A stretch of 64,000 nt of DNA, from assembly GCA_016926205.1 (NCBI GenBank), contig JAFGPB010000099.1, forward strand, positions 9,414 to 73,413, written 5' to 3'. Source of the stretch: Bacteroidales bacterium (lineage in GTDB: Bacteria > Bacteroidota > Bacteroidia > Bacteroidales > UBA10428). The translations under genes and the position numbers were made by a program. A model generated the notes under the pieces. It saw only the letters and a program-made list of their open reading frames with translations, was not told where the DNA came from and ran no database searches. Position 1 is the stretch's first letter; every line of letters begins with the position of its first letter. Positions 11,631 through 44,659 of this stretch are shown piece by piece.

Positions 11631-11675
11631 TTCACCTGTTCTTGCCTGGACAATGAACAATAATTATACTTGACC

Positions 11676-19650: not shown

Positions 19651-19821
19651 CTTTGAATGTTTTACCGACAAATATAGAGTGTTACTTTAAATGAATAAAT
19701 TTATATACATTTGCTGAGCGTATAACTGTGTAATTTTAAATAGCTGGATCTGGTGTATGGCCTGACGTTCGTCAGGAATCCGTATGCCTTATCTTTGCGC
19801 CTGTTTCAAAACCGCTGTGCA

Positions 19822-22572: not shown

Positions 22573-24375
22573 ATGAGATCGATAACAACTGCTCTATCAT
22601 GCCTTTTAGCACTTCATGCCTTTGGCCAGCAGGATTTTGATTATGCGCAGAAACTTGTGGAAAGTGAGCAATATGAAGCTGCAGAAGAGGTGTTTGCAGG
22701 TTTGCTGGAAAAGGATCCGGCAAACGGTGATTTATACTATTATTATGGAGAGGCACTGCTTAAGGACTACCTGTCAGATACACTGGCAAATTCTCTTCCG
22801 GAATTTGCAGGCAATGCGGAAGAACTCTTCCAGGAGGGACTTAAACGGGATGCCGGCAATCCGTTGAACCTTGTCGGTGTCGGAGCCGTAATTCTGTTGC
22901 GTACGAACGATACGACCCAGGCACAGCCTTATTTCGACAAGGCTGAGGCTTCAATTCCCACAAAAAAGAGACAAATTACATCCGAACATGCCGTGCTTCT
23001 CTCAGAAATGGCTGAAGCCCAGTTGTACAGCAAAATAATCAATTATCCAAGGATCATCTATTATACTGACAAAGCCAGGGAAATCAGTCCTGAGGATCCA
23101 CACATATATTTAATCCTGGGGGAAATGTATATTACACAGAACGATGCCTCCAACGCATTGTCCAATTACAACAGGGCCAATTATTTCAATCCCGACTGGC
23201 CGGTTCCCAAAATAAAGATCGGTGACATTTATATGCGCATACCCAATCTGAATGCTGCACGGCCATACTTTGAAGAAGCCAGGGATATCGATTCAACTTT
23301 TGCCCCGGTCTATCGGAGTCTGGGAGAGCTTTACTACAAGGCAGGCATGTACGATCTTTCAAATCAGATGTTTGAAAAGTTCATGATGTTGTCGGGATAT
23401 ACAACACCCTCCAAGCTTCAATATGCCAATTCATTGTTCAAGGCCGGTGATCATGAAGGGGCCCTGGAGGTTTACGAGGATATTCTGAAAGTGGACAAGT
23501 CCCGCAATTACATCTATCGAGTGGCCGCGTATTCATGTTACGAGGTCAGACCGCAGCAACTTGAGAAAGGATTGGATTTCATAGAGACATTCCTGAAAAA
23601 TGAAGATCCGGAAAATGTCATTTCAAGGGATTATGCTTACTACGGAAGGATCCTATACAGGATGGCCGATTACAGTGATTCTGCATTGCTTGCCCGATCG
23701 TTCACACAGTTCATGAAAGCATATGAACTGGATTCCACAAACGTGAGCCTTGTCACAGAACTGGCCCTTGACTTTTACAATGCCCGGTGGTATGAGGGTG
23801 CAATCCGGATGTACCAGAGAAAGGCCGAACTCAGAAACGGAGAGGAAAGTTTTGAAGACATCATGAGGATTGGAAGATCTTATTACAACCTGAAAATGAC
23901 GGCTGAAGCGGATTCTGTATTCAGCAAATGCATCGGGTTGCAGCCTGACAATATTGAGGCCTATATGTTTCTGGCAAGGACTTATGCCCTGATGGACCCA
24001 GGAACCGTTAAAGGGTTGGCAGCACCTAAATTCCAGACCGTGATCGACAGGTTCGGCTCGGATGCTGAAAAATACAAAACTCAGCTCTATGAAGCATTTT
24101 CCTACATGGAATTTTACAATCTGCAACAGGGGAATTATACCGCAACCCGGTCCTGGGCTGACAAAATCCTGAACCTGGATCCCCAAAACCGTGATTGGCA
24201 GATTAATGCATTGAGTGCTAAGGCTATCAGCTATTATCGGGTGGATGATTACGTGAATTCACGTGAAATGTACCGGCAGTTGCTCAATTGGAATCCGGGC
24301 AATGCTCCTGAGGTCAGGCAAACCATTGAAGATCTGACGAAGCTGATTAATATGGAAAGAAATTTAAGACAGTAA
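22573..24375 (+). CDS. Large TPR-repeat protein (exported)
   Basis: Signal peptide MRSITTALSCLLALHAFGQ and many TPR-like helical pairs across 600 aa. Confidence 0.8.
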   Translation: MRSITTALSCLLALHAFGQQDFDYAQKLVESEQYEAAEEVFAGLLEKDPANGDLYYYYGEALLKDYLSDTLANSLPEFAGNAEELFQEGLKRDAGNPLNLVGVGAVILLRTNDTTQAQPYFDKAEASIPTKKRQITSEHAVLLSEMAEAQLYSKIINYPRIIYYTDKAREISPEDPHIYLILGEMYITQNDASNALSNYNRANYFNPDWPVPKIKIGDIYMRIPNLNAARPYFEEARDIDSTFAPVYRSLGELYYKAGMYDLSNQMFEKFMMLSGYTTPSKLQYANSLFKAGDHEGALEVYEDILKVDKSRNYIYRVAAYSCYEVRPQQLEKGLDFIETFLKNEDPENVISRDYAYYGRILYRMADYSDSALLARSFTQFMKAYELDSTNVSLVTELALDFYNARWYEGAIRMYQRKAELRNGEESFEDIMRIGRSYYNLKMTAEADSVFSKCIGLQPDNIEAYMFLARTYALMDPGTVKGLAAPKFQTVIDRFGSDAEKYKTQLYEAFSYMEFYNLQQGNYTATRSWADKILNLDPQNRDWQINALSAKAISYYRVDDYVNSREMYRQLLNWNPGNAPEVRQTIEDLTKLINMERNLRQ

Positions 24376-27577: not shown

Positions 27578-29753
<2,176 letters not shown>

Positions 29754-29835
29754 TCAACAAATGCTCCGGAATTGGCAAATAACTGCAAATTGTGCATGAT
29801 TGGTAATATGTATATCTAAAATCGCAATTCTTTTA

Positions 29836-29843
29836 TATCTTTG
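29836..29843 (+). promoter_or_regulatory. Candidate -7 box (TATCTTTG) driving the cobalamin riboswitch leader
   Basis: Exact TAnnTTTG match ending 6 nt before the first base of the riboswitch P1 stem (29850). This would put the transcription start right at the aptamer. Confidence 0.5.
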
Positions 29844-29849
29844 TACGGG

Positions 29850-30042
29850 TTATGGTTTCCGGAGACGCTTTCGCATTTCCGGGATAATAGGGAATCAGGT
29901 GTGAATCCTGAACAGTACCCGCTGCTGTAATCTCCTTTATTATTCAGTGTACCTGCAGCCACTGTTGAGGTTCCGGAGATCGATCCGGATGGGAAAACGG
30001 GAAGGCATCACTGAATGGAGTAAGTCAGAAGACCTGCCATAA
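29850..30042 (+). promoter_or_regulatory. Cobalamin (B12) riboswitch
   Basis: P1 pairing TTATGG (29850-29855) with CCATAA (30037-30042). Conserved core AATAGGGAATCAGGTGTGAATCCTGAACAGTACCCGC, GCCACTG (29958-29964), GGGAAGGC, and the B12 box AGTCAGAAGACCTGCC (30023-30038). It sits 32 nt upstream of a TonB-dependent receptor gene. Confidence 0.9.
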
Positions 30043-30074
30043 TTTAAATTTGTTCGGGTTTAAACAATACTGAA

Positions 30075-32021
30075 TTGGCTTTGAAATTATCTGACTTATT
30101 ATTCGTACTATCAACCCTTGTATCGTGTTCCCATGCTTTCTGCCAGATGAAGGAACCAGAAGTGATTTCCATACCGGAAGTCATTGTTACAACAAGCAAT
30201 TCGAAGTTTTTTTCTGAAGACCAGACAATCATTTCTGTCGGTAAAAACGTACTCCCTTTAAGCCGGCAACAAAACCTGGGCATCGTTTTAAGCCATGAAT
30301 CGCCTGCCCTGATACGAAGTTACGGCGGCCAGGGCTCCCTCGTGTCGCTTTCTTTGCACGGAACAGGCTCCAACCATGCCTCGGTAAACTGGAACGGTTT
30401 TCCGGTCAACTCACCTACCACAGGTCAGATCGACCTGTCACTGATACCTTTCGGCTTCATGCAGCATGTAAACATTGTAAATGGCGCTTCGGGTGCGTTG
30501 CATGGCAGCGGCACTTTCGGCGGATTTGTCGAGTTGACAAACGAAGCCGATTGGAACAACAGGTTTTCGGTGAATGTATCGGCAGAGGCAGCCAGTTTTC
30601 ATACACACGGTTATTTTGGATCCATACAGACCGGGGGGGAAAGGTTGCAATATCATCTTTCCCTGCTTGACAGGCGTTCACTGAATGATTTTACTTATAA
30701 GGATATATACCGGTTTGGTTCACCCGAAATCACAGCGGTGCACAATACATTTAAATCGCGTGGCATTATGCAGAACCTTTACCTGAATGCAGGGAACGGA
30801 CATCTGATTGAAGCCGGAACGTGGTTTCAGCATAAGATGAAAGAAACGCCGCCGCTTATGGGGTCTTATAAAGAAAGCAATGCGGTGCAGATAGATCGTA
30901 ATGTCAGGTCATATCTGAATTACCGGAAGACCTTCGGGCGTTCTTTCCTGCTCGTAAAGGCTGCTTACTTTACTGATTTTATGAACTATACCGATAAAAA
31001 CAATGCAACGGACGAAGACTATTCTGTATATTCGAAAATTGACATCAGCAGAATAATGAGCGGAATCGAATACCGTCATACTGTTTCACCGGCTTTCACA
31101 GCGGGCATGGGTGGATCCTATATTTTTAATCATGCTGTTTCCAACAACTACATCAATGAAATACGTGAGCATGAATTCGCATTGTACGGCAATCTTAAGG
31201 TGAAAATGGGAGACTGGATCATCAATACCTCGGCGAGACAGGAGTTTTATGACGGCATAGATCCGGTCTTTCAGTATTCTCTGGGCGTGCGTTTTAAAGC
31301 AAATGAAAACATCATACTGCGGACTAATTTTTCAAATAAATTCAGAAAACCCACATTAAATGAAAAATACTGGAAACCGGGAGGCAACCCGCAATTGAAT
31401 CCCGAACAAGGCTGGGGCGGGGATCTTGCGGCTGAGATCATCATGCTGCAACATGATGACGCAACCCCGATCCTTTCATTAATGCTTTCGGGCTATTACC
31501 AGGGAATTGACAACTGGATACAATGGATTGTACGCGATTCTTTAACACCGGTGGAATACAAGAAGGTTCATTCCCGTGGCGCCGAGGCTGTGATAAATTT
31601 CCGTGTTTTGGCAGGACAGTTCAATATCTCGGGAAATCTGAACTACGGATGCAATTTTGCAACCATAAAGGAAACGTATGACGACAATCAATCCCTGGCA
31701 GGAAATCAGCTTGTTTATATACCGCGGCACGTGGCACGGATGAATCTGAATGTTATGTACAGGAAGTTTACCCTTGGGTGTTATGGTACCATGACAGGGA
31801 AACGGGAGACTGCAGAAAGTTCAGACCCGATCTTACGTTTGCCGGCATACGGACTTGTTGACATCCTGACCGGGTACGACAGACAGTTCGGACAAATCCA
31901 TGCCGGTATTCATTTTCAGATTGAAAACCTGTTTGACAAACAATATGAAGTCATACGTTCCTATGCCATGCCGGGCAGAGCTTTTCATGTTGTTCTGACA
32001 CTCGATTTTGACAAAGAATGA
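30075..32021 (+). CDS. btuB: TonB-dependent outer-membrane receptor, BtuB-like
   Basis: Signal peptide, plug domain (LSHESPALIRSYGGQGSLVSLSLHGTGSNHASVNWNGFPVNSPTTGQIDLSLIP), and a beta-barrel ending in an aromatic-rich terminal strand (RAFHVVLTLDF). It lies downstream of the B12 riboswitch. The signal peptide requires the TTG 30075 start. Confidence 0.85.
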   Translation: MALKLSDLLFVLSTLVSCSHAFCQMKEPEVISIPEVIVTTSNSKFFSEDQTIISVGKNVLPLSRQQNLGIVLSHESPALIRSYGGQGSLVSLSLHGTGSNHASVNWNGFPVNSPTTGQIDLSLIPFGFMQHVNIVNGASGALHGSGTFGGFVELTNEADWNNRFSVNVSAEAASFHTHGYFGSIQTGGERLQYHLSLLDRRSLNDFTYKDIYRFGSPEITAVHNTFKSRGIMQNLYLNAGNGHLIEAGTWFQHKMKETPPLMGSYKESNAVQIDRNVRSYLNYRKTFGRSFLLVKAAYFTDFMNYTDKNNATDEDYSVYSKIDISRIMSGIEYRHTVSPAFTAGMGGSYIFNHAVSNNYINEIREHEFALYGNLKVKMGDWIINTSARQEFYDGIDPVFQYSLGVRFKANENIILRTNFSNKFRKPTLNEKYWKPGGNPQLNPEQGWGGDLAAEIIMLQHDDATPILSLMLSGYYQGIDNWIQWIVRDSLTPVEYKKVHSRGAEAVINFRVLAGQFNISGNLNYGCNFATIKETYDDNQSLAGNQLVYIPRHVARMNLNVMYRKFTLGCYGTMTGKRETAESSDPILRLPAYGLVDILTGYDRQFGQIHAGIHFQIENLFDKQYEVIRSYAMPGRAFHVVLTLDFDKE

Positions 32022-33094
32022 AATTTTATCAACTTATATTATTGTTGCTGCTGACAGTCTTGTTGGCAGCATGTGAGAACGACAATGACGGGCCTGCCGG
32101 CGATACATACGGATCCGGAGTCTATATTATTAATGAAGGATTTTTTTCTGGCAATAACGCAACCATAAGTTACTATGATCAGAATGACGGGACTATGGAC
32201 CATGCAATTTTTTACAACGCAAACGGCCGGGTTATCGGCGATGTTTTACAGTCGTTTACCGTGAATGGAAATACAGGTTTTATTGTGGTCAATAACTCTG
32301 CCAAGGTTGAAGTTGTTGATATGAGTACTTTTGAAACAGTCTCGGAGCCTGTTGCGGCAACATATCCGCGTTATTTTCTGCCGGTAACTGCCGAAAAAGG
32401 ATATCTGACCAACGGGAGCTTTCAGGGTTATGTGCTGATCGTGGATTTGGATGATTTTACTGTAACGGATTCAATACAGGTAGGGTTTGGTCCTGAAACA
32501 TTAATTCAGCTTGAAGACAACATTTTTGTCTGCAACAGTGGCGGATGGGGATCGGACTCTACCATAAGTGTTATTGATCCGGCTACGGATGCAGTGACAG
32601 GTACGATTAAGGTCACTGATACCCCCATGGATATTGTTGCAGATGCAATTGGAAACTTATGGGTGTATTGTAAAGGATATGCAGCGTATGACTGGAATCC
32701 ACCGTATGATCTGATCAGTGAAACGGATGCATACTTGCACCAGGTTGATCCGGCAACCGGAACTATCCTCTGGCAGGGGAAAGTAGGCAAAGCCAGTGAC
32801 TATGTTGTAGTTCCGCCTAAATGTGCCATCTCATCCGACGGACTTACCTTATACTACCTGCGACCTGACGGGGTATATTCGGTTTCTGTTACCAATCCGT
32901 CGATTGCTGATGATCCGCTGATATCCGGCAGTTCTTATTACGGCATTGACGTGAATCCGCAGAACGGGGATCTCTATTTGTGTGAAGCAAGTCTTTCCGG
33001 CAACGGTTCTCTTAAGATATATGACGCAGAAATAAACTCTGTTGCATCTTATGCAGTGGGTATCATGCCGAATGGTGCGATATTTGTTCCCTGA
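32018..33094 (+). CDS. YncE-like beta-propeller surface lipoprotein (same locus position and predicted fold class as BtuG-type corrinoid binders)
   Basis: ATGA overlap with btuB. Lipobox LLAAC. Repeated blade signatures (GFIVVNNSAKVEVVD, GYVLIVDLDDFTV, IFVCNSGG...ISVIDPATDAV, LHQVDPATGTI, DLYLCEA...LKIYD). Confidence 0.7.
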   Translation: MKFYQLILLLLLTVLLAACENDNDGPAGDTYGSGVYIINEGFFSGNNATISYYDQNDGTMDHAIFYNANGRVIGDVLQSFTVNGNTGFIVVNNSAKVEVVDMSTFETVSEPVAATYPRYFLPVTAEKGYLTNGSFQGYVLIVDLDDFTVTDSIQVGFGPETLIQLEDNIFVCNSGGWGSDSTISVIDPATDAVTGTIKVTDTPMDIVADAIGNLWVYCKGYAAYDWNPPYDLISETDAYLHQVDPATGTILWQGKVGKASDYVVVPPKCAISSDGLTLYYLRPDGVYSVSVTNPSIADDPLISGSSYYGIDVNPQNGDLYLCEASLSGNGSLKIYDAEINSVASYAVGIMPNGAIFVP

Positions 33095-33177
33095 TTAAAG
33101 GATGTCGGCACTTCCTTGATCATTTTTCGGTATCTTTCCGTTAAAAACCATATATTCACGGAGTGAATGATGCCGTT

Positions 33178-35325
33178 ATGAGACCAGCAACGTTTGACCG
33201 GGGCATTTTACTGAATTTTTTTTTATTCATGAGTTCATTCGCGGTCTGCCAGGTGTCAAGACCCGGAAAACCATTGCTGCTGAACTATGAGGGAGCAAAA
33301 CAACTTATTGTATATGAGATAGAGGTTCCCGGGAAGGAAGAATCTGCTGAGTCTGCCAAAGAAGTCCATCCGTGGCTGAAACCTGCCGGTTCAGGATTTT
33401 TGGCAGATGTCGGTTTTGACATCTACGAGACCGGCACATGGGATACGCTGCAGGACGGGACAAAAGTCTGGCGTGCAGCCTTTCTGGTCAGCCATGCCAC
33501 AGCCCTGAATGTCGTTTTCAACACATACAGGGTGAACAAGGGTGTAAAGGTATACCTTTATGATTACGAACAGCAGCATGTTCTGGGTGCATTTACAGAT
33601 ATGAACAACAAAACTGCAGGTATGCTCGCCACAGCGCAGCTCTTCAGTGAACTGCTGATCGTAGAGGTACAGGTTCCGTCGTATCTTGATCATGCTGGTG
33701 AGCTGGTCGTTGCACAGATCGGATGCGATTTTTCAGTTGACCGTGAAACAAAAGCATTAAAGGACGGCTGGTATGGCTTATCGGGTGACTGCAATGAGGA
33801 CATCAACTGTTATGACAGCCCCCTTTACCAGCAGCTCAAATATTCTGTCGTCCGCATCGTTTACCAGGGGGGGGAACGGTGTACAGGGGCGCTGCTGAAC
33901 AATACCTCGGAAAACGGACGCAATTACGTGATCACTGCAGAACATTGCATCAGCAATGAAAATATTGCCAATACCTCTGTTTTTTATTTCGATTATGAAA
34001 GTCCGTTTTGTGACGGTCCGGACGGGAACAGCAGCAGGAGCATATCGGGATCGACCATACGTGCGAAAGGTGACTGTCTCGATTTTGTACTGCTGGAATT
34101 GCTGGAACCCGTTCCCTATACTTACCGCCCCTATTATGCGGGATGGGATGTAACGGGCAATGCGCCTCTTTCAGGTGTTGCCATACACCATCCGAAGGGG
34201 GATGTCAAGAAAATCGCTGTTGAAAATCACAGCCTGACCACCGCAACATTCAGCAGTGAATATGTTGAAAATTCACACTGGCTTGTTCACCACTGGGAAT
34301 CAGGTACTACCGAAGCGGGTTCATCGGGAGGACCCTTCTTCGATCAGCATGGCAGGATCACGGGAACACTGACAGGCGGTCAGGCTACCTGCAGTGATCC
34401 GGTCAACGATTATTTTCAAAAGGTGGCAGGCGAATGGGACTTCCTGCGCTTATGGCTGGATCCTGCCGTGGTGCATCCGGGATTCGTTGACGGATATGAT
34501 CCATGGGCGGAATTCTGGAGGAGCGGGGACACGCTTTCCAACATACGGGAATCGGAGCAGCTGGTAACCCTGAAGGACGGCCTGGTATGGGGAAATTTAT
34601 CGGGTCATAATTCTGCATACCTTACGCAGTTTGCCGAGCAATACAGGATCCTTGACAAAAAAACCCTGTTCGGAATATTGCTGAACATATCCCAGAATGA
34701 TGTCACTTCAGCGGCTTCCCACCTCATCGTAAAAGTCTGGCAGGGCGGATCCTTTCCTGAAGAAACAATTTTTGAAAAGGATGTTCTTCTGGCGGATCTG
34801 ATACAGGATGAGGTGAACCTGATCGAGACGGATTCAGCTGTATACGTTGCCGATACATTTTATGTCGGATATGAACTTTTTTATGGTCAGCCCCAGGATA
34901 CATTTGCCGTGCGGATGGCCATCAGCCGCCCCGTTCAGCAGGAAAACACCGCATTTGTTTTCGACGGTACGAAATGGATGTCCATGAGCGATTACACTTC
35001 CGGCATTGTGAATACCTCCTTCAGCATCTTTCCGGTTGTATATGATCAGGATCCTGTGGATCCGGATGATGATCCTGAAGAAGCTGTCAAGGTCTATCCG
35101 AATCCGGTCTCAGATGAATGCTGGATAGATTTCAGGGAAATGACCTCCGGACCGGTAACACTCAGGTTGTACAATTTGTCGGGACAGCCGGTTTACCGGC
35201 AGGATTTCCCGCCTTATCAGACCAAGATTCATCTGCAGACCGGAAATCTCACATCCGGTGTTTATATCCTGAAAGTTACGGGAGATCACGGAACCTCGAC
35301 TGCAAAGCTGATCATATTTAGGTGA
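33178..35325 (+). CDS. Secreted S1-family (trypsin-fold, lysyl-endopeptidase-like) serine protease with a T9SS C-terminal sorting domain
   Basis: Catalytic triad: H in VITAEHC (33943), D in CLDFVLLEL (34081), S in GSSGGPFF (34324). Signal peptide present. The last ~80 aa (35083-35322; KVYPNPVSDE..LRLYNLSGQPVY...SGVYILKV) form a type-A T9SS CTD. The ORF is open from GTG 33163. Confidence 0.85.
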   Translation: MRPATFDRGILLNFFLFMSSFAVCQVSRPGKPLLLNYEGAKQLIVYEIEVPGKEESAESAKEVHPWLKPAGSGFLADVGFDIYETGTWDTLQDGTKVWRAAFLVSHATALNVVFNTYRVNKGVKVYLYDYEQQHVLGAFTDMNNKTAGMLATAQLFSELLIVEVQVPSYLDHAGELVVAQIGCDFSVDRETKALKDGWYGLSGDCNEDINCYDSPLYQQLKYSVVRIVYQGGERCTGALLNNTSENGRNYVITAEHCISNENIANTSVFYFDYESPFCDGPDGNSSRSISGSTIRAKGDCLDFVLLELLEPVPYTYRPYYAGWDVTGNAPLSGVAIHHPKGDVKKIAVENHSLTTATFSSEYVENSHWLVHHWESGTTEAGSSGGPFFDQHGRITGTLTGGQATCSDPVNDYFQKVAGEWDFLRLWLDPAVVHPGFVDGYDPWAEFWRSGDTLSNIRESEQLVTLKDGLVWGNLSGHNSAYLTQFAEQYRILDKKTLFGILLNISQNDVTSAASHLIVKVWQGGSFPEETIFEKDVLLADLIQDEVNLIETDSAVYVADTFYVGYELFYGQPQDTFAVRMAISRPVQQENTAFVFDGTKWMSMSDYTSGIVNTSFSIFPVVYDQDPVDPDDDPEEAVKVYPNPVSDECWIDFREMTSGPVTLRLYNLSGQPVYRQDFPPYQTKIHLQTGNLTSGVYILKVTGDHGTSTAKLIIFR

Positions 35326-35463
35326 TGCAGGTAAAAGGAAGTATGGCTGTGAGGTGGAGTCATGGCTTCCGGCGGCATTGGTGAAAACAGATTTTTCAGG
35401 CTCAAATTGGTAACATTTGTGGCCAAAATCAAGTATAGTATTGTGGTCATAATGATTTTCACA

Positions 35464-38367
35464 ATGTCGGGATACAGGATAACCTTTCTTTTCCTTTTAT
35501 CGGTGATGTTCATGTCCGTTAACGGACAGGACGCTGCTTCATCTGCCTCTCTCAATGTACGGGGCGTTTCTGAACTTGATATGGAACCACTGCCCGGTGC
35601 CACCGCAACACTGTATGAAGGGGGCAAACGTATAAATTCTGTAAGGACGGGTACAGACGGTAGGTTTTCGTTCACACTTGAAGTGAACAGGCAGTATACG
35701 ATCGAAATCTCAAAAGAAGGACTGATCAGCAAGAGGATCAGTTTCAACACCACCATGCCGGATGAAGAAAAAGGCGTATGGACAAGTGAATTTTCCATGG
35801 GACTTGTCAGGTTCTGTGATGGTGTTGATTACAGTATTCTGGATGAACCTGTGGATGTTGTGGAATTTGATGCAGGGAGAAGGGAATTTGTATCCAATAA
35901 GGAATATGTTTCGAGAATGCGACCCAAAATTGAAGATGTGCTCATGGATTATGAAACCTGCATGCTGGACAAGTATGATGCTGCCATGAGAAAGGCCGAT
36001 CAGGCCTATGCCAGGAAAGAGTATCAGGAAGCAATTTCAGAATACAATGCTGCCCTGGAAATTTATCCTGACGAAAAACTGCCGGGTAAACGTATTGCAG
36101 AAATTGAAACGCTGATCGAAGATGAACGGAATACAGATGAAGCATACGACCGGGCAATTGCTCAGGCTGATGCCTTATTCGAACGACAAAAATTTACTGA
36201 AGCACTTTCAAAGTACAGGGAAGCGTCGGCCCTCAAACCCCGGGAGAATTACCCGAAAGAAAAAATCTCAGCCTCTGAGGCAGCGTACTCTGTGCAGCAG
36301 GCCGAACTTAATGAACAGCGCGACAGGGAGGACGCCTATAACCTGACTCTGGCAAAAGCCGGTACGGCATATACACAGAAGGACTACAGCAAGGCACTTG
36401 AATATTATCAGGCTGCGGCTGAAATAAAACCTTCAGAGGCTTTACCGAAAACCAGACTTGAAGAGATTCATGAAATTCTGGAGAAGAAAGCTGCTGAAGA
36501 AGCAAGCATCAGGAAAATTGATGATGCGTACAGAAATGCAATTGCTGAAGCTGAAGCCCTGGTAAACAGCGGGGATTATGATGCCGCGAGGCAGAAGTAC
36601 GCATATGCGCTGACAGTCAAGCCTGCTGAGGCATACCCAAAGACAAAAATGACTGAGATTGACCGTATTGTCGAAGCTCAGGCCCGTGCTGAGGAAAATG
36701 CAAAAAAGGCATTAATGGAGAAGGAGTATCAGTCGGTTCTCACTGAGGCGGACAGGTTGTACCGGAACAAGGACTATGAAGGAGCCAGAGCGGCTTATGT
36801 AAAAGCTCTTGAGGTGAAGCCGTCAGAGCCGTTTCCGAGACAGAGGATCACTGCCATAGAGAATGCTGTGGCTGCGGAACAGGCTGCACAGCAAATGGCT
36901 GTGGAAAAAGAATACCAGGCTGCAATCACTGCCGCGAATGCTGCATTGTCACAGAAAAATTACGTGGAGGCAGTATCATTGCTGAACAGGGCGCTTGAAT
37001 ACAGGCCGGATGATCCTTTTGCAATGAAGAAACTTAATGAAACGGACATCCTGATCGCGGAACAGGAAAGGAACCAGGAGATGCGGCAACATCAGGATGA
37101 ACAGTACAATGATGCCCTGCTGGCCGGCGATCAGTTTCTGGCCCGGAAAGAATATGACAATGCCAGGCAACAATTTCAGAGAGCCATGGAGATAAAACCG
37201 GGAGATCCGGTTGCCCGGAAAATGCTGACACAGATTGAAGAAATCCTTCTGGCCGAGAAGACAGCAGTTCAGAGGGAATTCGAGCTTTCTTATTCCGCAG
37301 CAATGACGAAGGGCGTTGAATCACTCACGAAAAAAAATTATGCGGATGCCGGGGATGCTTTCAGGGAGGCACTTGCCATCAAGCCTGATGATGTCTCTGC
37401 AAAACAAAAACTGAATGAAACTGAAAGGGTGCTTTCTCTTGAAGCACAGCGTCTGGTTGCCGAAACGGAAAAAAAACAGAATTATGATGAGGTTGTTATG
37501 AGGGGTGACGGATTGTTTGCCGGCAAAGAATATTCAGGAGCAAAACAAGCTTATGAGGATGCGCTGCGGATCATTCCCGGTGAACCCTATCCCCGGCAGA
37601 AAATAACAGAAATAAACCAGATCATTGAGGAACAGGATCAGCTGCTGCAGGAGTTGCAGGCGGTAGAAAACACCTATCAAAAAGCCCTCACCTATGCGGA
37701 CAACTATTATGAAATGAAGGATTATGCGGGTGCGCGTGAAGAATATATCAGGGCAGCAGAAATTAAGCCGGATGAAACGTATGCCAGGGAAAGACTTGAA
37801 GAAGTAGAGGAACTGATACGTGTCAGGGAGATTGAACAGGCTGAGGTTTCAAAAAGGGCAGATGCCTACGCTGCGACCATCAGCAAAGCGAATGATTCAT
37901 TCAATAAAAAGAAATACCAGGATGCCAGAAGCAGTTACAATCTTGCACTTCAGCTTATCCCCGGCGATGTTTATGCAAAAGAACAGATCGCCAGAATTGA
38001 CCGCATAACAACGATGTCATCACGGTCACAGTCTTCAGAGGCTGAAGGCCAGGCAACACTATTGTCAGCAACTGCACCGGACAAGCTTGAGTTTTCATCC
38101 GATCAGGAAAAGGACAACTATTTTGAAGAGCTCAGGAGAAGTTACCCGGGAGGAATTACCCTGGAAATTTACCGGGAAGAATACAAAGAGACCCTGCGCT
38201 ATATTGTCATAAGAAATGACATTGTAAATGAATTCAGAAAGCTCAGATTTCTTACCTTTGGCCAGGAGGAGTATTCTGTGAACGGCAAACCCATTACGGA
38301 GATGTATTTCCTTTCACAGATCAAACAACGTGAAGGAGAACAATATAAAGAGATTGTAATGCAATGA
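35464..38367 (+). CDS. Exported CarboxypepD_reg-domain protein with about 11 tandem ~62-aa helical (TPR-like) repeats
   Basis: Signal peptide MSGYRITFLFLLSVMFMSVNGQ. Ig-like domain LNVRGVS...GATATLYEGGKRINSVRTGTDGRFSFTLEVNRQYTIEISKEG (35548-35751). Repeats with consensus Y..A...AD..F..K.Y..A...Y..AL.IKP.E.YP...I.EI. Globular 118-aa tail. The ORF is open from 35362. Confidence 0.85.
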   Translation: MSGYRITFLFLLSVMFMSVNGQDAASSASLNVRGVSELDMEPLPGATATLYEGGKRINSVRTGTDGRFSFTLEVNRQYTIEISKEGLISKRISFNTTMPDEEKGVWTSEFSMGLVRFCDGVDYSILDEPVDVVEFDAGRREFVSNKEYVSRMRPKIEDVLMDYETCMLDKYDAAMRKADQAYARKEYQEAISEYNAALEIYPDEKLPGKRIAEIETLIEDERNTDEAYDRAIAQADALFERQKFTEALSKYREASALKPRENYPKEKISASEAAYSVQQAELNEQRDREDAYNLTLAKAGTAYTQKDYSKALEYYQAAAEIKPSEALPKTRLEEIHEILEKKAAEEASIRKIDDAYRNAIAEAEALVNSGDYDAARQKYAYALTVKPAEAYPKTKMTEIDRIVEAQARAEENAKKALMEKEYQSVLTEADRLYRNKDYEGARAAYVKALEVKPSEPFPRQRITAIENAVAAEQAAQQMAVEKEYQAAITAANAALSQKNYVEAVSLLNRALEYRPDDPFAMKKLNETDILIAEQERNQEMRQHQDEQYNDALLAGDQFLARKEYDNARQQFQRAMEIKPGDPVARKMLTQIEEILLAEKTAVQREFELSYSAAMTKGVESLTKKNYADAGDAFREALAIKPDDVSAKQKLNETERVLSLEAQRLVAETEKKQNYDEVVMRGDGLFAGKEYSGAKQAYEDALRIIPGEPYPRQKITEINQIIEEQDQLLQELQAVENTYQKALTYADNYYEMKDYAGAREEYIRAAEIKPDETYARERLEEVEELIRVREIEQAEVSKRADAYAATISKANDSFNKKKYQDARSSYNLALQLIPGDVYAKEQIARIDRITTMSSRSQSSEAEGQATLLSATAPDKLEFSSDQEKDNYFEELRRSYPGGITLEIYREEYKETLRYIVIRNDIVNEFRKLRFLTFGQEEYSVNGKPITEMYFLSQIKQREGEQYKEIVMQ
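35971..38010 (+). repeat. Coding tandem-repeat array (about 11 units of ~185 nt, diverged at the DNA level) inside the gene above
   Basis: Each unit ends with a (I/V/L)KP-x-(E/D)-x-(Y/F)P-x-x-(K/R)-(I/L)-x-E(I/T) motif. Units were read directly from the translation. Confidence 0.8.
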
Positions 38368-39512
38368 GGTGCTGGTGCATCAGCCTGTCCGTATGGCTCA
38401 TACTGTCAGGCTGCAATAGCAGGGAACCTGGAACAGTAAAGGTAAATACCAGTCGCGGTGCATCTTCCGGCCGGGTCACATATGCAAGCGGTTTCACAAT
38501 TGAGAACAATGAGGACAGAGTGGTGCTCAGCATTAAAAATCCCTGGCAGAATGCTGAGCAGATAAGCTATTCCTACATTCTTTGCAATTCAGCGGAATCA
38601 TCCTCCGCAATCGGCGGAAGGGAAAACCTGATAAAAGTTCCTGTCAGCCGTGTCGTCTGTCTTTCGACCACACACATAGGTTTTATCGATGATCTGGGAA
38701 TGACGGAAAGCATCGTCGGCATCTCGGGAAAGGATCTTGTTGTTAGTCCCGTGATGAGGAAAAGGATAGAAGTGGATGAAATCCGGGATGTGGGGTATGA
38801 TGAAAACATCAATTATGAACTGTTGCTTGAACTGGATCCTGATGTCGTTTTTGCATACGGAGTAACGGGCTCGGTTACCAAAATCCTAAATAAGCTTGAA
38901 GAGTTGAACATACCGTTTGTGCTGGTTGCGGAATACCTTGAACAGAAACCTCTGGCCAAAATGGAATGGATCAAGTTCTTCGCAGAGTTTTACGGAATGG
39001 GAACAGAAGCAGAGCTGCATTTTGATTCTGTCGCTGATGAATACAACAGGCTTAAGGGACTTACATCCCGGATTGAGGAAAGACCTGAGGTAATTCTGGG
39101 ATTGCCCTGGAGGGGTACATGGTATGTTTCCGGGGGACAGAGTTATGTGGCTGAGCTTATCGCGGATGCAGGAGGGAACTATGTATGGAAATCACTGGAT
39201 TACAGGGACAGCAGACCCATGGAGCTTGAGAAGGTATTTGAGAAAGCACTGACAGCTGACTTCTGGCTCAATACAGGAGCTGCCCGGTCAATTGCTGAAA
39301 TTATCAGGACGGACGAGCGTTTTAAGAACCTGCAGGCCTTCAGACGAAACACGATCTATAACAACAATAAACTGTTGAATGATACCGGCGGCAATGCGTA
39401 TTTTGAATCAGGTGTCGCGGAACCCCATGTTATTCTCGCAGATCTTATATCCATTTTACATCCGCAATTGTTACCTTCGCATGAACTAAAGTATTACCAG
39501 AAACTTCAGTAG
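38364..39512 (+). CDS. btuF: ABC-transporter periplasmic binding lipoprotein (class III, BtuF/FhuD-like)
   Basis: The ATG overlaps the preceding stop (ATGA). Lipobox LILSGC. RVVCLSTTHIGFIDDLG and DPDVVFAYG are typical of cobalamin/siderophore binding proteins. The B12 assignment rests on context. Confidence 0.8.
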   Translation: MRCWCISLSVWLILSGCNSREPGTVKVNTSRGASSGRVTYASGFTIENNEDRVVLSIKNPWQNAEQISYSYILCNSAESSSAIGGRENLIKVPVSRVVCLSTTHIGFIDDLGMTESIVGISGKDLVVSPVMRKRIEVDEIRDVGYDENINYELLLELDPDVVFAYGVTGSVTKILNKLEELNIPFVLVAEYLEQKPLAKMEWIKFFAEFYGMGTEAELHFDSVADEYNRLKGLTSRIEERPEVILGLPWRGTWYVSGGQSYVAELIADAGGNYVWKSLDYRDSRPMELEKVFEKALTADFWLNTGAARSIAEIIRTDERFKNLQAFRRNTIYNNNKLLNDTGGNAYFESGVAEPHVILADLISILHPQLLPSHELKYYQKLQ

Positions 39513-39528
39513 ACCGCGAAAGGAAAGT

Positions 39529-40581
39529 ATGAAACAAATCCATCCCGGCAAGGGGCCCCATACATCTTTACTGATCATTTTTCTGCTGGCCATTGCAGCC
39601 TTTCTGTTCATGCTCGACCTGGTAACCGGACCGGTGGAAATTCCGTTCAGACTGGTTTTCACCACCCTTTTACATCCCGGATCCGTTGATCCGGTATGGA
39701 AACAGGTGATGTTTGACTTCAGGATCCCCAAAGCCCTTACGGCTGTTGTCGCAGGTTCTGCACTTGCTGTAAGCGGATTGCAGATGCAGACGGTTTTCAG
39801 GAATCCGCTGGCAGGACCCGATGTGCTCGGCATCAGTTCCGGCGCGGGTCTGGGTGTCGCACTTGTGGTTCTTGGATTCGGAAGGATTTTTTCCGGTGGT
39901 GAAATGCTGTACATCAGCGGATGGATTCAAATTGCGGCTGCCTGGGCCGGTGCCGCTGTCGTACTGTTTCTGGTAATGGCGGTATCATTGCGCGTGCGTG
40001 ATATAATGACCATACTGATCCTCGGCATACTATTCGGAAGTGCGGTATCGGCTGTTGTGAGCATTCTTCAGTATTTCAGCGAACAGGCCATGCTGAAGAC
40101 CTATGTCATATGGACCATGGGAAGTCTGGGCAGTCTCACGAATGTGCAGCTGAATGTATTGCTGGTAAGTATTGTCACGGGATTTATTATTTCAGTACTT
40201 TCACTGAAACGAATGAATATATTGCTGACCGGTGAAACGTATGCCCGGAGTCTGGGACTAAACCAGAAATCTTCCAGGATCCTGATCTTTTTATCAACCA
40301 GTATCCTGACCGGAAGCGTAACTGCTTTCTGCGGGCCGATCGGATTTGTCGGAATCGCAGTCCCGCATCTTGCAAGACTTTTGTTCCGCAGTGCCGATCA
40401 TAAAGTGTTGTTTCCGGGTAGTATCCTGCTGGGGGCGATAATGTTGCTGATCAGTGACCTTGTCTCTCAGATGCCGCCGCAGGATACGCATCTTCCTGTG
40501 AATGCAGTCACTGCACTCCTGGGAATTCCCATAGTGATGTGGATTATCTTTAAAAACCAGAGGCTGGTCAGCGTTTCATGA
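39529..40581 (+). CDS. btuC: FecCD-family ABC permease (BtuC-like)
   Basis: About 10 TM helices, RIPKALTAVVAGSALAVSGLQMQTVFRNPLAGPDVLGISSGAG, and FCGPIGFVGIAVPHLARLL. Confidence 0.9.
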   Translation: MKQIHPGKGPHTSLLIIFLLAIAAFLFMLDLVTGPVEIPFRLVFTTLLHPGSVDPVWKQVMFDFRIPKALTAVVAGSALAVSGLQMQTVFRNPLAGPDVLGISSGAGLGVALVVLGFGRIFSGGEMLYISGWIQIAAAWAGAAVVLFLVMAVSLRVRDIMTILILGILFGSAVSAVVSILQYFSEQAMLKTYVIWTMGSLGSLTNVQLNVLLVSIVTGFIISVLSLKRMNILLTGETYARSLGLNQKSSRILIFLSTSILTGSVTAFCGPIGFVGIAVPHLARLLFRSADHKVLFPGSILLGAIMLLISDLVSQMPPQDTHLPVNAVTALLGIPIVMWIIFKNQRLVSVS

Positions 40582-40597
40582 ACGCTACAGAAATGAA

Positions 40598-41623
40598 ATG
40601 GACCATAAGAACAAGAAGAATATTATAGATCTTAAAGAACTTATGATCGGTTACCGTACTCAGCACACACGGACTTCATTTGCCTACGGACCCATCAACC
40701 TGAGCATTCGCTCCGGTGACATGATTGCATTGATTGGTCGCAACGGCATTGGTAAAAGCTCATTATTGCGCACCATAGCACAGCTGCAAAATCCTTTGGG
40801 AGGGAACGTCCGCTTGTTTGGGAAGGAGAGCGACCGTTATGGCAGACGGGAACTGGCACAGATCATAAGTTTTGTATCGACTGAAATTGTCAGCATTCAG
40901 AACCTGAAGGTGTATGATCTGATTTCCCTGGGACGGGCTCCTTATACGAACTGGCTGGGGAAGCTGATGGATCATGACCATTCGGGGATTCAGTCAGCAC
41001 TTGACAAGGTGAAAATCCCGCATCTGGGGGCAAAATTCATGCACCAGCTCAGCGATGGTGAACGGCAAAAGGTCATGATTGCCAGAGCACTTGCACAGGA
41101 TACACCGGTTATCATACTGGATGAGCCCACGGCATTCCTTGATCTGCCCTCCCGGTATGAAGTACTGCGGTTGTTGAACGAACTCTCAATCCGGGAGGGA
41201 AAAACAATTCTGTTCTCAACGCATGATCTTGATATTGCAATTCATGAAGCGGATATCATCTGGCTGATGATCAGTGAAGGTATTACAGAAGGGGCACCGG
41301 AGGATTTGCTTTTTAAGAAACAATTTCATAAATTGTTCTTAAATTCATGTCTGGAATACGACCAGCAGTCGGATGGTTTCAGATTGCAAAAAGGGAGCCA
41401 AAAGAGTATCGGATTGAAAGGGACGGAGGAATCCGTGCACTTCACTGGAAAAGCTTTAAGAAGAATAGGATTTCAGGTGGATGGAACAAATAAGGGCATC
41501 GGCAGGATTGAAATTGTATCCGAAGGCGGAAAAATTGTCTGGATTCTGGATACAGGTGCTGAAAAGCAGGTATTTCAATCAATTTATGAGCTGACGGATT
41601 ATTTAAAATACAACTGTAAATAA
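40598..41623 (+). CDS. btuD: ABC ATPase (BtuD/FepC-like) with a ~85-aa C-terminal extension
   Basis: Walker A GRNGIGKSSLL, signature LSDGERQKV, Walker B VIILDEPTAFLD, and H-loop STHD. The extra C-terminal domain starts at about GFRLQKGSQ. Confidence 0.9.
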   Translation: MDHKNKKNIIDLKELMIGYRTQHTRTSFAYGPINLSIRSGDMIALIGRNGIGKSSLLRTIAQLQNPLGGNVRLFGKESDRYGRRELAQIISFVSTEIVSIQNLKVYDLISLGRAPYTNWLGKLMDHDHSGIQSALDKVKIPHLGAKFMHQLSDGERQKVMIARALAQDTPVIILDEPTAFLDLPSRYEVLRLLNELSIREGKTILFSTHDLDIAIHEADIIWLMISEGITEGAPEDLLFKKQFHKLFLNSCLEYDQQSDGFRLQKGSQKSIGLKGTEESVHFTGKALRRIGFQVDGTNKGIGRIEIVSEGGKIVWILDTGAEKQVFQSIYELTDYLKYNCK

Positions 41624-41629
41624 AAACTG

Positions 41630-41842
41630 ATGGAAACAATGATGAAAAAAGTCGTGTCCTATATTCTGATAGCAATGGTTCTTATATTTACCGTTGTCGC
41701 AATACTGGGTATATGGGATATCATTGATCTGAGGAATGTTATGATGAATGCGATCTTAACACTCATCATCATATTTGCGGCATCGGCGGTGATCCTGTTT
41801 ATATATACCGTTTTTATGAGGGATACAGAAAGAAAGGATTAA
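41630..41842 (+). CDS. Small two-TM membrane protein
   Basis: 70 aa with two hydrophobic helices, starting 6 nt after the ATPase gene. No family recognised. Confidence 0.5.
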   Translation: METMMKKVVSYILIAMVLIFTVVAILGIWDIIDLRNVMMNAILTLIIIFAASAVILFIYTVFMRDTERKD

Positions 41843-41878
41843 CTTTGGCCTCATTGTTTACGGAAACGAGATAAAAGA

Positions 41879-42793
41879 ATGCTGTCAATTCTGATTCCTG
41901 TTTATAATTTCAGCATTGTATCGCTTGTCACTGAGCTGCACCGTCAGTCCCTGAAAGCTGAAGTCCCTTTTGAGATTGTCGTTCTGGATGATTGTTCGTC
42001 AGAATTGCTGCGCGATCAGAACAAAGGTGTGCGCAAACTGAAGCATGTCCGTTTCATTGAGCTTGAAAAGAACATCGGACGGGCCCGCATCCGGAACAGG
42101 CTTGCGGACATGGCAAAGTATTCATCACTTCTTTTTATGGATTGTGATTCCGAGGTTCCGGACGATCAATATATTGACAGGTACCTGCCTTATGTCGGTC
42201 ATGAAGTTGTCGTTTGCGGGGGTCGGGCATACAAGCCTGAGCAGCCCGAGGAACCTGAATACTTTCTGAGGTGGCTCTACGGACTGAGCCGCGAACAGAT
42301 ACCTGCAAAAATCAGGGCCAAACATCCATACAGGTCCTTTATGACCAACAATTTCATGATCCCCAGGTCAATTCTGATGCAGATTCAGTTTGATGAAAGT
42401 ATTGTAAAATACGGCCATGAAGATACCCTTTTCGGTCTTGAACTAAAAAAAAGAAACATTCCCATAGTGCATATTCAGAATCCCCTGATCCACATAGGAG
42501 TTGAAGCTGCCGGTGAGTTTCTAATCAAGATGAGTGAAAGCATTGAAAATCTGGTGAAACTGGTCAAATCCGGCAAGATTGACAAAAAACATTATGATGA
42601 TGTCAGAATCCTGAGGTATTATGCTTTCCTGAAGAGATACGGACTGACAAAAACCTTCCTGAATATTTTTGACGGATTGTCCAATGCGTTGTACCGTAAC
42701 ATGTCAGGCAACAATCCAAGTCTTTTTCTCTTCAGCATATACAAACTTACACTCTTTTGCAGAGCGATGAACAAGAAAGATCAGGAAAGCTGA
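41879..42793 (+). CDS. Family-2 glycosyltransferase
   Basis: LSILIPVYNF....L...L........EIVVLDDCS, and a later DCD acidic motif. Confidence 0.8.
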   Translation: MLSILIPVYNFSIVSLVTELHRQSLKAEVPFEIVVLDDCSSELLRDQNKGVRKLKHVRFIELEKNIGRARIRNRLADMAKYSSLLFMDCDSEVPDDQYIDRYLPYVGHEVVVCGGRAYKPEQPEEPEYFLRWLYGLSREQIPAKIRAKHPYRSFMTNNFMIPRSILMQIQFDESIVKYGHEDTLFGLELKKRNIPIVHIQNPLIHIGVEAAGEFLIKMSESIENLVKLVKSGKIDKKHYDDVRILRYYAFLKRYGLTKTFLNIFDGLSNALYRNMSGNNPSLFLFSIYKLTLFCRAMNKKDQES

Positions 42794-42865
42794 TCCGTTG
42801 CCGGCAGTCCGGTACATATCCCGGATCGCCCGTTACACAAACCGGGAAGACCTGCCGCGAGGGCT

Positions 42866-44659
42866 TCAGGGTTTTACAAATGAAGGTTTAACAGTTTCAT
42901 CTGAGAACAGGATCGCTGATTGGATCAGTGCAATATGCGAATATCCCTGAGGAAAATTACCGAGCAGCCTCCGGGAACTGAAATCGATATCCTCGCTCAG
43001 TAATCCCAGATGGTTTGCACAGGATGCGGTTTTTTCAAAGATCTCCCTTGCCTCATCCTTCATTCCGATTTTATAGAGGCTGCTGACCAGCCAGAAGGTA
43101 CATATGGTGAAAGATGAATGTGGCAGGCCAAGACCGTCGGCATGTTTGTAACGATACATCAGTCCGTCCCTCAGCAACTCTTTTTTAACAGCATGAACGG
43201 TGTTAACATAATGTTCATCGTCCGCTTTCAGAAAGCCGCTGTCTTCGACCAGCAACAGGGACGCATCCAGATTCTCCCCGCCGTATACCTGTACAAAGGA
43301 CTTTTTGTTATTACTCCACCCCCTGCTCATAATATCATGGCGGATCTGGTTTGCAGTTTTTTCCCATTCCGCAATGTATTCCGTACGGTGGAGCATCCGG
43401 GCGATCTTTATGCCCCGGTCGACCGCAACCCAGCATTGGATTTTTGAAAAGACATAATGTCTGGGTTCCTGACGGATCTCCCAGATACCGTGGTCGGGAT
43501 TTTTCCAGACATTGGAAACGGTCCGGACCAGGCTGCGGGTAATCGACCAGATGTCCTCCATTTCATCCAGTGTTCCCGAAAAATATTGGTAGTACTGCAG
43601 GATCAAATCGAGCAAAAACCCGTATATGTCATTCTGAATCTGAAGATATGCTGCATTTCCAATGCGTACGGGTCTGGAATGCATGTATCCGGAAAGATGT
43701 CCGAGTATTTTTTCATCAAGCGTCCTTTCTCCCCGGATCCCGTACATGATCTGAAAGTGCTCATCCTTGGATTTGATAATATTTTTAAGATAGGTCATGT
43801 ACCGGCGTGCTGCGGAAAAATGGCCCAGCCTGACCAGTGTATTCAATGTGAGGGATGCATCCCTCAGCCAGCAGAAACGGTAATCCCAGTTCCTGCTTTC
43901 GCCAATGGTCTCCGGCAGTGAAGTTGTCGGTGCCGCCAATATTGCTCCTGAACCCTGATACGACAGCAGTTTCAATACAAGTAAACTTCTGTTTATCAAA
44001 TCGTTGTATAGAGGGTAGTCCCGGGAACGATTGATCCAGTTCAGCCAGTAGACCTTGGTTCTCTGGTATTCAAGGTATACACGGTTGAGATCGATATCGA
44101 TGAGTTTCTCGTTGTATGAGATCAGGATGTATCCTGAATTCTTTAACGTGATTTCATTGGATTCCAGGATATCCTGTAACTGAAATGAAGTATACAGATA
44201 GACGGATTCATATCTTGAACCCGAAATATAACTCTTGATGCAGTCGCTTTTTAAAACATGCTGCGTTTCTCCTGAAGCATAATTGAGCTTCGGATCATAT
44301 TTAAATCTGACTGCAGGTGTCCCTGACAAAATCCTGATATAACGGTAGATTTCCGGAGGTGTGAAATACTGGTTATACTCGGTTTTGTAACGGGGCATGA
44401 AATCAAGGACTTCAAAGGAATTGCTTCCATCGGTAAAAATTGTGTGCAATATATTGGTGTTTTTCAGATAGCTCTGAGATGACCTGTAGTCTTCACGCAG
44501 CAATATTTGCATGGATCCTCCGGTTTTTTCGTCCAGTATCCTGGCAAAAACAGAAGGTGAATCAAACTCAGGCAGACAACACCAGTCAATGGCTCCGTCC
44601 ATTGATATCAATGCCGCACTTTTACAGTTGCCGATCAGTCCATAGTTGAGATTTTCCAT
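42866..44659 (-). CDS. Glycoside hydrolase family 15 protein (glucoamylase/trehalase-like)
   Basis: NYGLIGNCKSAALISMDGAIDWCCLPEFDSPSVFARIL N-terminal signature, CWLRDAS, and an (alpha/alpha)6 region. The ATG shares one nucleotide with the otsAB stop (TGATG). Confidence 0.9.
   Translation of the reverse strand: MENLNYGLIGNCKSAALISMDGAIDWCCLPEFDSPSVFARILDEKTGGSMQILLREDYRSSQSYLKNTNILHTIFTDGSNSFEVLDFMPRYKTEYNQYFTPPEIYRYIRILSGTPAVRFKYDPKLNYASGETQHVLKSDCIKSYISGSRYESVYLYTSFQLQDILESNEITLKNSGYILISYNEKLIDIDLNRVYLEYQRTKVYWLNWINRSRDYPLYNDLINRSLLVLKLLSYQGSGAILAAPTTSLPETIGESRNWDYRFCWLRDASLTLNTLVRLGHFSAARRYMTYLKNIIKSKDEHFQIMYGIRGERTLDEKILGHLSGYMHSRPVRIGNAAYLQIQNDIYGFLLDLILQYYQYFSGTLDEMEDIWSITRSLVRTVSNVWKNPDHGIWEIRQEPRHYVFSKIQCWVAVDRGIKIARMLHRTEYIAEWEKTANQIRHDIMSRGWSNNKKSFVQVYGGENLDASLLLVEDSGFLKADDEHYVNTVHAVKKELLRDGLMYRYKHADGLGLPHSSFTICTFWLVSSLYKIGMKDEAREIFEKTASCANHLGLLSEDIDFSSRRLLGNFPQGYSHIALIQSAILFSDETVKPSFVKP

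Follow-up and report, generated by a model that had tools for sequence, protein, structure and literature searches.

What does a long helical repeat protein do between the outer-membrane and inner-membrane genes of a vitamin B12 uptake cluster? We addressed this question in a 64,000-nucleotide (nt) stretch of the genome of a Bacteroidales bacterium (hereafter the window; contig JAFGPB010000099.1, positions 9,414 to 73,413 of the forward strand), where an open reading frame (ORF) at 35464..38367 (+) encodes a tetratricopeptide repeat (TPR) protein of 967 amino acids (aa) plus a stop codon. A first-pass annotation, made from the letters alone, had singled out this gene as encoding a 'giant' protein that might connect either a secreted protease or the B12 machinery to an ATP-binding cassette (ABC) importer; a length of 967 aa does not make it a giant. 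The genomic link between the repeat gene and the importer is well supported. The repeat protein itself may be a periplasmic, rod-like scaffold or tether that serves as a dedicated accessory of the BtuF/BtuCD-type importer, which in this genome belongs to a corrinoid uptake cluster. We prefer this explanation of its function to the others that we considered, and we hold it tentatively.

The setting of the gene gives the first part of the answer. A cobalamin riboswitch (RF00174, 29836..30055 (+)), matched over its full length at 100.7 bits against an Rfam gathering score of 31.5, lies directly upstream of a TonB-dependent receptor gene, heads a co-directional run of genes and marks the locus as one for B12 uptake. 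The first-pass annotation had not noted this element. The receptor (30075..32021 (+)) has the Pfam Plug and TonB_dep_Rec_b-barrel domains and is BtuB-like, its best NCBIfam matches being TonB-B12/BtuB models that score under their cut-offs. The next gene (32018..33094 (+)) encodes a BtuG-like, seven-bladed propeller surface lipoprotein (Pfam DUF5074) whose lipobox, LAAC, is followed by acidic residues; the protein matches PDB entries 8bmx_D, 8p97_B and 8bmy_A (E ~1e-32), which are structures of BtuB-BtuG and BtuG (2026 review). The riboswitch and the identification of the DUF5074 gene as a btuG homolog strengthen the B12 assignment that had been made earlier. Beyond a protease gene (33163..35325 (+)) and the repeat gene come the importer genes, which encode a 382-aa BtuF-like class III periplasmic binding lipoprotein (38364..39512 (+); Pfam Peripla_BP_2, E 4e-22), a FecCD-type permease (39529..40581 (+); Pfam FecCD, E 1e-73) and an ABC ATPase (40598..41623 (+); Pfam ABC_tran, E 2e-29). 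The gene order is btuB-btuG-protease-TPR-btuFCD, with the repeat gene inside a riboswitch-headed btu locus. The lipobox of the binding protein reads LSGC, and lipoboxes are also present in its orthologs at all loci; about 80 residues separate this lipobox from the Peripla_BP_2 domain, which starts at aa 97, and about 50 residues follow the domain. A promoter and terminator scan of 29700-42900 performed no better than the same scan of shuffled sequence.

We then compared this neighborhood with those of relatives, using look-ups of eight homologs and one genome per species (26 loci, all from metagenome-assembled genomes of uncultured Bacteroidales), in which the window proteins were located by tblastn. 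In every locus with downstream sequence (23 of 23, out of the 26), the gene next after the repeat gene is the one for the binding protein. In the window the two genes share the ATGA at 38364..38367 (+), the stop/start overlap that the first-pass annotation had reported, and in all 21 loci in which both genes are intact they overlap by either -4 (ATGA) or -1 (TAATG), with different last codons. These 21 include locus L013, where the ATGA is visible at the junction. In the other two loci a stop breaks up the repeat gene, leaving frames of 248 aa (L018 9920-10666) and 727 aa (L033 3638-5821) with the tail and the binding-protein gene still present downstream; these interruptions could be sequencing errors or pseudogenes. 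Because the overlap is preserved even though the sequence of the junction has changed, neutral synteny would not be the expected explanation.

Adjacency also extends to much more distant relatives. In L004, where the repeat protein is 33% identical to that of the window and the upstream genes are different, the binding-protein gene is adjacent with a 1-nt gap, and in L005 (31% identical) it is adjacent with a 32-nt gap. On a still more distant branch (L038 and L040, 29-30% identical overall), the pair stays together with gaps of 8 and 60 nt in wholly different flanks, with no protease gene and with an acetyltransferase gene inserted after the binding-protein gene. The proposed link to the binding protein and ABC importer is thus borne out by adjacency and overlap across 26 genomes and by adjacency alone at 29-33% identity. 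The first-pass annotation had also named the opposite outcome, namely homologs with no conserved neighborhood or an ATGA overlap that relatives do not keep, and we observed neither.

The protein encoded at this position is exported and elongated and has a distinct domain at each end, and this part of the earlier idea is supported. ATG 35464 is the likely start, as orthologs of 967 aa begin there and a type I signal peptide reads from it, while ATG 35362 would also allow a longer reading; the identical (100%) NCBI protein, P0001, is modeled at 982 aa and annotated 'tetratricopeptide repeat protein'. The signal peptide, which the first-pass annotation had noticed and which reads directly from the sequence as type I, covers aa 1-21 (35464..35526 (+)), reads MSGYRITFLFLLSVMFMSVNG and ends with cleavage between VNG and Q, so that the mature N-terminus is Gln, as it also is in orthologs. 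We found no lipobox Cys and no hydrophobic segment beyond the signal peptide. The signal of Btu-type surface lipoproteins is absent as well, with no Cys in or directly after the signal peptide (the only two are at positions 118 and 166), and neither Pfam nor NCBIfam returned a type IX secretion system (T9SS) C-terminal sorting domain of Por_Secre_tail (type A) or CHU_C (type B) kind. Since the protein has neither a lipid or membrane anchor nor a T9SS signal, the periplasm would be its default destination.

At the N-terminus lies a prealbumin/CarboxypepD_reg-like β-sandwich (aa 29-144, 35548..35895 (+)), predicted by AlphaFold2 with a mean predicted local distance difference test score (pLDDT) of 93.9 in a model of aa 22-346 built with 20 orthologs. 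The Pfam CarboxypepD_reg profile (PF13620) matches only aa 39-93 at 25.8 bits (E 1.4e-5), below its cut-off of 32.3, but several homologs hold precomputed PF13620 matches and the predicted structure has a transthyretin-like sandwich fold. In Foldseek searches of the PDB its best matches were transthyretin- and carboxypeptidase-regulatory-type domains (E 1e-6 to 1e-4), among them 4v4c_B (E 8.5e-7), teneurin 6fb3, carboxypeptidase N 2nsm and CnaB domains. The Ig-like domain that had been placed at 35548-35751 is therefore real but was drawn too short, as the sandwich runs to 35895, and the conserved N-terminal module reaches further still, to aa 161. The only two cysteines of the protein are both invariant: C118 follows a strand of the sandwich, and C166 lies in the first long helix of the repeat array. 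They probably form a disulfide that staples the sandwich to this helix, which would fit an extracytoplasmic location.

The middle of the protein is an array of eleven units of 57-66 aa (aa 162-853, 35947..38022 (+)), delimited with a hidden Markov model (HMM) of the unit, the Pfam TPR families and the AlphaFold2 secondary structure. The HMM found exactly 11 units, at 40-86 bits each, with successive periods of 57, 64, 64, 66, 62, 64, 62, 64, 64 and 64 aa, mostly 62-64. The estimate of about 11 repeats in the first-pass annotation holds, and the core motif that it wrote out is present in each unit; its limits for the array, 35971-38010, needed only to be moved outward. Pfam TPR_2 (E 3e-34, 114.6 bits against a cut-off of 27) and TPR_1 (74.7 bits against 27.8) both match clearly, while the NCBIfam TPR matches are partial and far under their cut-offs. 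In the model, each unit consists of one long helix of 35-42 aa and one short helix of 14 aa and holds a single TPR motif, formed by the C-terminal part of the long helix (TPR helix A) together with the short helix. The stretch that had been taken for a charged, coiled-coil-like linker forms no element of its own: it is the N-terminal half of this continuous 35-42-residue helix. The repeat belongs to the TPR clan by sequence but does not build the contiguous, 34-residue, right-handed superhelix: canonical and consensus TPR arrays align to the model only at a root-mean-square deviation (rmsd) of 20-27 Å (Foldseek against the PDB), which points to a TPR-derived repeat without the canonical superhelix. 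On the predicted structure, the unit is thus a stretched TPR variant, a TPR by sequence and not by geometry. Neither Tandem Repeats Finder nor a direct-repeat search detected repeats at the DNA level in the window gene, and therefore the array is old and diverged.

After the array comes a low-complexity linker of about 19 aa, rich in Ser, Thr, Gln and Ala (aa 854-872, 38023..38079 (+)), with 5-26% identity and variable length among orthologs. It leads to a C-terminal α/β domain of 95 aa (aa 873-967, 38080..38364 (+); AlphaFold2 pLDDT 94.2) that is predicted to run helix, four strands, helix, strand. The 118-aa globular tail of the first-pass annotation accordingly contains a folded domain, as proposed, but this domain is 95 aa long and is preceded by the unconserved linker. 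It had no significant sequence match in Pfam or the PDB and no fold match in the PDB (best E 0.04, with a template modeling (TM) score of 0.43). We consider it an undescribed domain family. Three assignments of the tail were tried and rejected. SPOR/R3H-like domains gave marginal matches only (the SPOR profile matched 3 of 26 tails, at E 0.06 or weaker), and the SPOR order β-α-β-β-α-β does not correspond to that of the tail. A glyoxalase/vicinal oxygen chelate (VOC) module was suggested by PF00903 pieces in paralogs, but these pieces, which are many, short and sub-threshold, lie within the repeat arrays and not in the tail. A new T9SS sorting domain was considered because of the constant C-terminal position, but there was no profile match and the predicted fold is mixed α/β with two helices. 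In the paralogs P0051, P0067, P0105, P0078, P0189 and P0192, Pfam Glyoxalase, PRTRC_E and tyr_de_CO2_C matches fall inside the repeat arrays. They consist of numerous short pieces, none of them significant by itself; they look like repeat artifacts and could mislead automatic annotation.

The family as a whole conserves its ends and varies its middle. A search of 5.8 billion proteins returned many full-length relatives. Among them, 67 proteins of 910-1343 aa have the N-domain (at about 45-80% identity) as well as the tail (at about 43-80%). Compared with the window protein, 11-unit orthologs show about 64% identity over the N-domain, 54% over the tail, 40% over the repeats and 10% over the linker. 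Arrays of 11, 12, 13, 15 or 17 units occur in 24 orthologs from related genomes, with frequent two-unit steps, and in the whole family the number ranges roughly from 6 to 30. Protein lengths in the species-genome set likewise follow increments of one or two units, and the gene of a 17-unit ortholog retains a faint 366-nt periodicity. Fixed, better-conserved ends around a variable middle are the pattern expected of a spacer. The tail is restricted in its distribution: a tail profile run against 1.84 billion representative proteins gave only 227 matches at E <= 0.001, and in every match listed the domain lies at the C-terminus or a few residues from it. Eight of nine distant tail-domain members that we scanned (595-2282 aa) carry TPR arrays, and four of them also have a recognizable CarboxypepD_reg domain. 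Proteins of the P0081 class have similar repeats, other end domains and unrelated neighbors. About 2 kb upstream of a distant family member, at L038 3988-4815 (+), a 275-aa TPR protein shows a weak N-domain match (23% over 131 aa) and may be a short paralog.

These features suggest how the protein might work. The N-terminal sandwich, stapled to the first long helix, would head a stiff rod of 11 stretched TPR units, and the 95-aa terminal domain would be held at the far end of the rod by its short flexible linker. The repeat protein would be made together with the lipoprotein BtuF through the overlapping stop and start codons, and because of this translational coupling BtuF or BtuCD is suggested as one of its partners. 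One end domain could then dock on membrane-anchored BtuF/BtuCD and the other on the outer membrane, BtuB-BtuG or the cell wall (peptidoglycan), so that the rod would act as a spacer or scaffold that keeps the outer- and inner-membrane halves of the uptake route together. Docking by the ends is suggested by the conserved ends and variable middle, together with the head that is probably stapled and the tail that is flexibly tethered. There is a plausible job for such a scaffold. Bacteroidota attach BtuF to the inner membrane, and for the membrane-anchored BtuF lipoprotein of Bacteroides the consequences of this anchoring for cobamide capture and BtuC docking are stated to be unknown (PMC13616437). 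The BtuF-like protein of the window is a lipoprotein too. A more specific version, in which a rigid rod of tunable length joins BtuB-BtuG to BtuF/BtuCD or passes B12 over the periplasm via the C-terminal domain, is doubtful. If it were true, B12 import in these Bacteroidales would proceed through a continuous trans-envelope assembly and not by diffusion between two membranes. A conserved, exported rod that is co-translated with BtuF and encoded between the outer- and inner-membrane gene sets is a concrete, testable candidate for the missing periplasmic step.

Several observations weigh against a dedicated role in B12 import. From one related species to another the rod varies in length by about 50% (11 to 17 units), which fits poorly with a strict ruler across a periplasm of fixed width. 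A sister clade of longer proteins (P0070, P0105 and P0116; 1500-1670 aa; L009 8001-15590, L010 8001-14372 and L039 1-7079) has the same N-domain and repeats, with a weak tail match in two of the three proteins examined. Its neighbors are an unannotated gene of about 334 aa (absent from L010), an OMP_b-brl_2 barrel and DUF4846, with no importer; because the sister clade shares the end domains away from any importer, these domains cannot be specific for B12. In L007 the protease gene, repeat gene, small ORF and glycosyltransferase gene are kept and the importer is lost. In many relatives, an opposite-strand GFO/IDH/MocA gene parts riboswitch-btuB-btuG from protease-TPR-btuFCD, lying between btuG and the protease gene (L002 6290-7609 (-), L003 6302-7624 (-) and most of L013-L025), and we found no second riboswitch upstream of the protease gene in these split clusters; the gene is absent from the cluster in the window and in its nearest relative. 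Wherever a related locus includes the receptor gene, the riboswitch lies ahead of it, but no riboswitch was found in the distant loci L005, L029, L032-L034, L036-L038 and L040. Part of the synteny must be inherited and not independently selected, as the close relatives all belong to one uncultured Bacteroidales lineage. Finally, the NCBIfam matches of the binding protein to BtuF and IsdE are weak, so its substrate is assigned from context only.

Much of the same evidence would be accommodated if the repeat protein were a general structural protein of the envelope that spaces or tethers its layers, for example the outer membrane to the cell wall, and owed its place in the B12 locus to inherited synteny. 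The sister clade, which shares the N-domain and repeats, is encoded next to an outer-membrane barrel gene and DUF4846 without a transporter, L007 has the repeat gene without the importer, the close relatives come from a single lineage, and distant loci lack the riboswitch. A general envelope role would, however, leave the persistence of adjacency to the binding-protein gene at 29-33% identity amid unrelated flanks, as well as the retention of the stop/start overlap despite changes in the junction, without a ready explanation. We regard this possibility as unlikely, though it is the alternative that we take most seriously.

The next candidate partner is the product of the gene immediately upstream, a 720-aa serine protease that resembles lysyl endopeptidase and carries a T9SS C-terminal domain of type A (Por_Secre_tail, aa 644-718). 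Over aa 205-447 it matches PDB entries 4nsv and 1arb (lysyl endopeptidase, or Achromobacter protease I; E 1e-29), and the catalytic motifs TAEHC, DFVLLEL and GSSGGP align with that enzyme. Before export, the repeat protein could retain the protease in the periplasm, inhibit it there or put it in position; after export, it could serve as an anchor for the protease. The link to the importer would then be secondary. The protease gene does lie immediately upstream of the repeat gene in 24 of the 26 species genomes. It does so in L004, L005 and L007 too, at a distance of as little as 7-19 nt in the last two, and L007 retains the protease-TPR pair after loss of the importer. In contrast, the protease gene is missing from four loci in which the repeat and binding-protein genes stay adjacent: L028 and L030, whose repeat gene comes straight after btuG, and L038 and L040. 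Its usual distance from the repeat gene is 81-158 nt, compared with an actual overlap at the btuF junction, and other tail-domain proteins have no protease neighbor. The link to the T9SS protease that the first-pass annotation entertained is thus weaker than the link to BtuF, and a protease partner is a decidedly unlikely explanation. That a B12 locus contains a lysine-specific secreted T9SS protease suggests that protein-bound corrinoids are released by proteolysis; our literature searches returned nothing relevant that links lysyl endopeptidase to B12.

The repeat protein might instead be a periplasmic corrinoid carrier, in which an end domain binds B12 and relays it from BtuB to membrane-anchored BtuF. 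In Bacteroides, B12 loci abound in accessory proteins that bind B12 and have novel, unrelated folds (PMC13616437), no relative of the tail domain is known, and the repeat gene is co-translated with btuF. Against this, the N-domain and weak tail matches recur in paralogs that are unrelated to any transporter, no B12-binding motif or fold was recognized in the repeat protein, and a carrier has no need of a long rod, which together make this function improbable. Last, an ordinary, free-standing TPR protein that lacks any specific partner or neighborhood, the null hypothesis of the first-pass annotation, is what the database labels ('tetratricopeptide repeat protein' or 'hypothetical protein') and the great abundance of TPR proteins would suggest, but the conserved tripartite architecture with two non-TPR ends, the conserved neighborhood and overlap, and the non-canonical repeat geometry make it highly implausible.

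How does a periplasmic scaffold of this kind, which we tentatively favor, compare with known systems? TPR arrays are generally scaffolds for protein-protein interaction. The repeat protein shares with canonical TPR scaffolds (Pfam TPR_1/TPR_2; 1na0 and 2fo7) the helix A/helix B motif in each unit, but its period is 57-66 aa and not 34, helix A is extended at its N-terminal side, and the motifs are consequently spaced along the rod. TolA domain II, Braun lipoprotein (Lpp) and CpoB/YbgF are likewise elongated, helical, exported proteins, and their length matters for the geometry of the envelope. We found no relation to them in sequence or fold, and the repeat protein differs in having no membrane or lipid anchor and in being built of repeats whose number varies.

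Closer to hand, the PorE (PG1058)/CHU_0125 family comprises peptidoglycan-binding envelope proteins of Bacteroidota with TPR, β-propeller, CarboxypepD_reg and OmpA_C domains (PMC5053529; PMC5891637). Its members have a role in tethering envelope machinery, and what the repeat protein shares with them is the combination of TPRs with a CarboxypepD_reg-type sandwich in a Bacteroidota envelope protein. The domain order of the repeat protein is reversed, however, with the sandwich first, and its C-terminal domain has a different, undescribed fold. Pfam and NCBIfam gave no OmpA_C match, in line with the remark in the first-pass annotation that no OmpA C-terminal domain was visible, and no PD40/WD40-like propeller match; the CHU_0125 model (NF053607) reached 17.2 bits against a cut-off of 620, over the sandwich only. 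The resemblance to OmpA-family proteins that had been proposed therefore fails.

The comparison with accessory proteins of B12 uptake is one of genomic position. In Bacteroides, BtuG, BtuH, BtuJ and BtuK are surface proteins that relay B12 outside the cell, and BtuL shows that an accessory gene need not encode a B12 binder (PMC13616437). Like the genes for these five proteins, the repeat gene is a non-core gene between btuB and btuFCD in a riboswitch-headed locus (PMC13616437). Unlike their products, which are β-rich surface lipoproteins, the repeat protein is mostly helical, has a type I signal peptide and is probably periplasmic. Full-text literature searches turned up no account of B12 loci that encode a TPR protein. 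We propose that the repeat protein is a scaffold derived from TPRs that ends in an undescribed domain and has taken a new genomic role, and a candidate accessory part of B12 uptake. Whatever its function, the stretched TPR unit of 62-64 residues offers a natural helical spacer of variable length, and the always-terminal 95-aa domain, which has no Pfam or PDB relative, defines an undescribed family.

The gene run of the cluster extends a little beyond the importer. The ATPase gene is followed by a 70-aa ORF (41630..41842 (+)) with two hydrophobic, probably transmembrane, stretches, and then by a gene for a family 2 glycosyltransferase (Pfam). Alignable copies of this small ORF, of 67-70 aa, occur at L002 16958-17170, L004 17571-17783, L007 13888-14100 and L038 15111-15314, and it is thus clearly conserved, even where the importer has been lost (L007) and on the distant branch (L038). 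Further downstream, on the opposite strand, lie a trehalose-6-phosphate synthase/phosphatase gene and a glycoside hydrolase family 15 (GH15) gene (42866-46851 (-)). Other envelope-related genes of the window encode a BatD-domain protein (11670-13490 (+)), a conventional TPR protein of 600 aa (22573-24375 (+)) and a CarbopepD_reg_2-domain protein (59908-61545 (+)). The end domains of the repeat protein have no resemblance in these three, in the trehalose-6-phosphate gene or in the GH15 gene. Elsewhere in the window, a 502-aa ORF at 19753-21261 (+) has an inosine-uridine nucleoside hydrolase domain joined to an FmdE domain at the C-terminus, which is an unusual combination.

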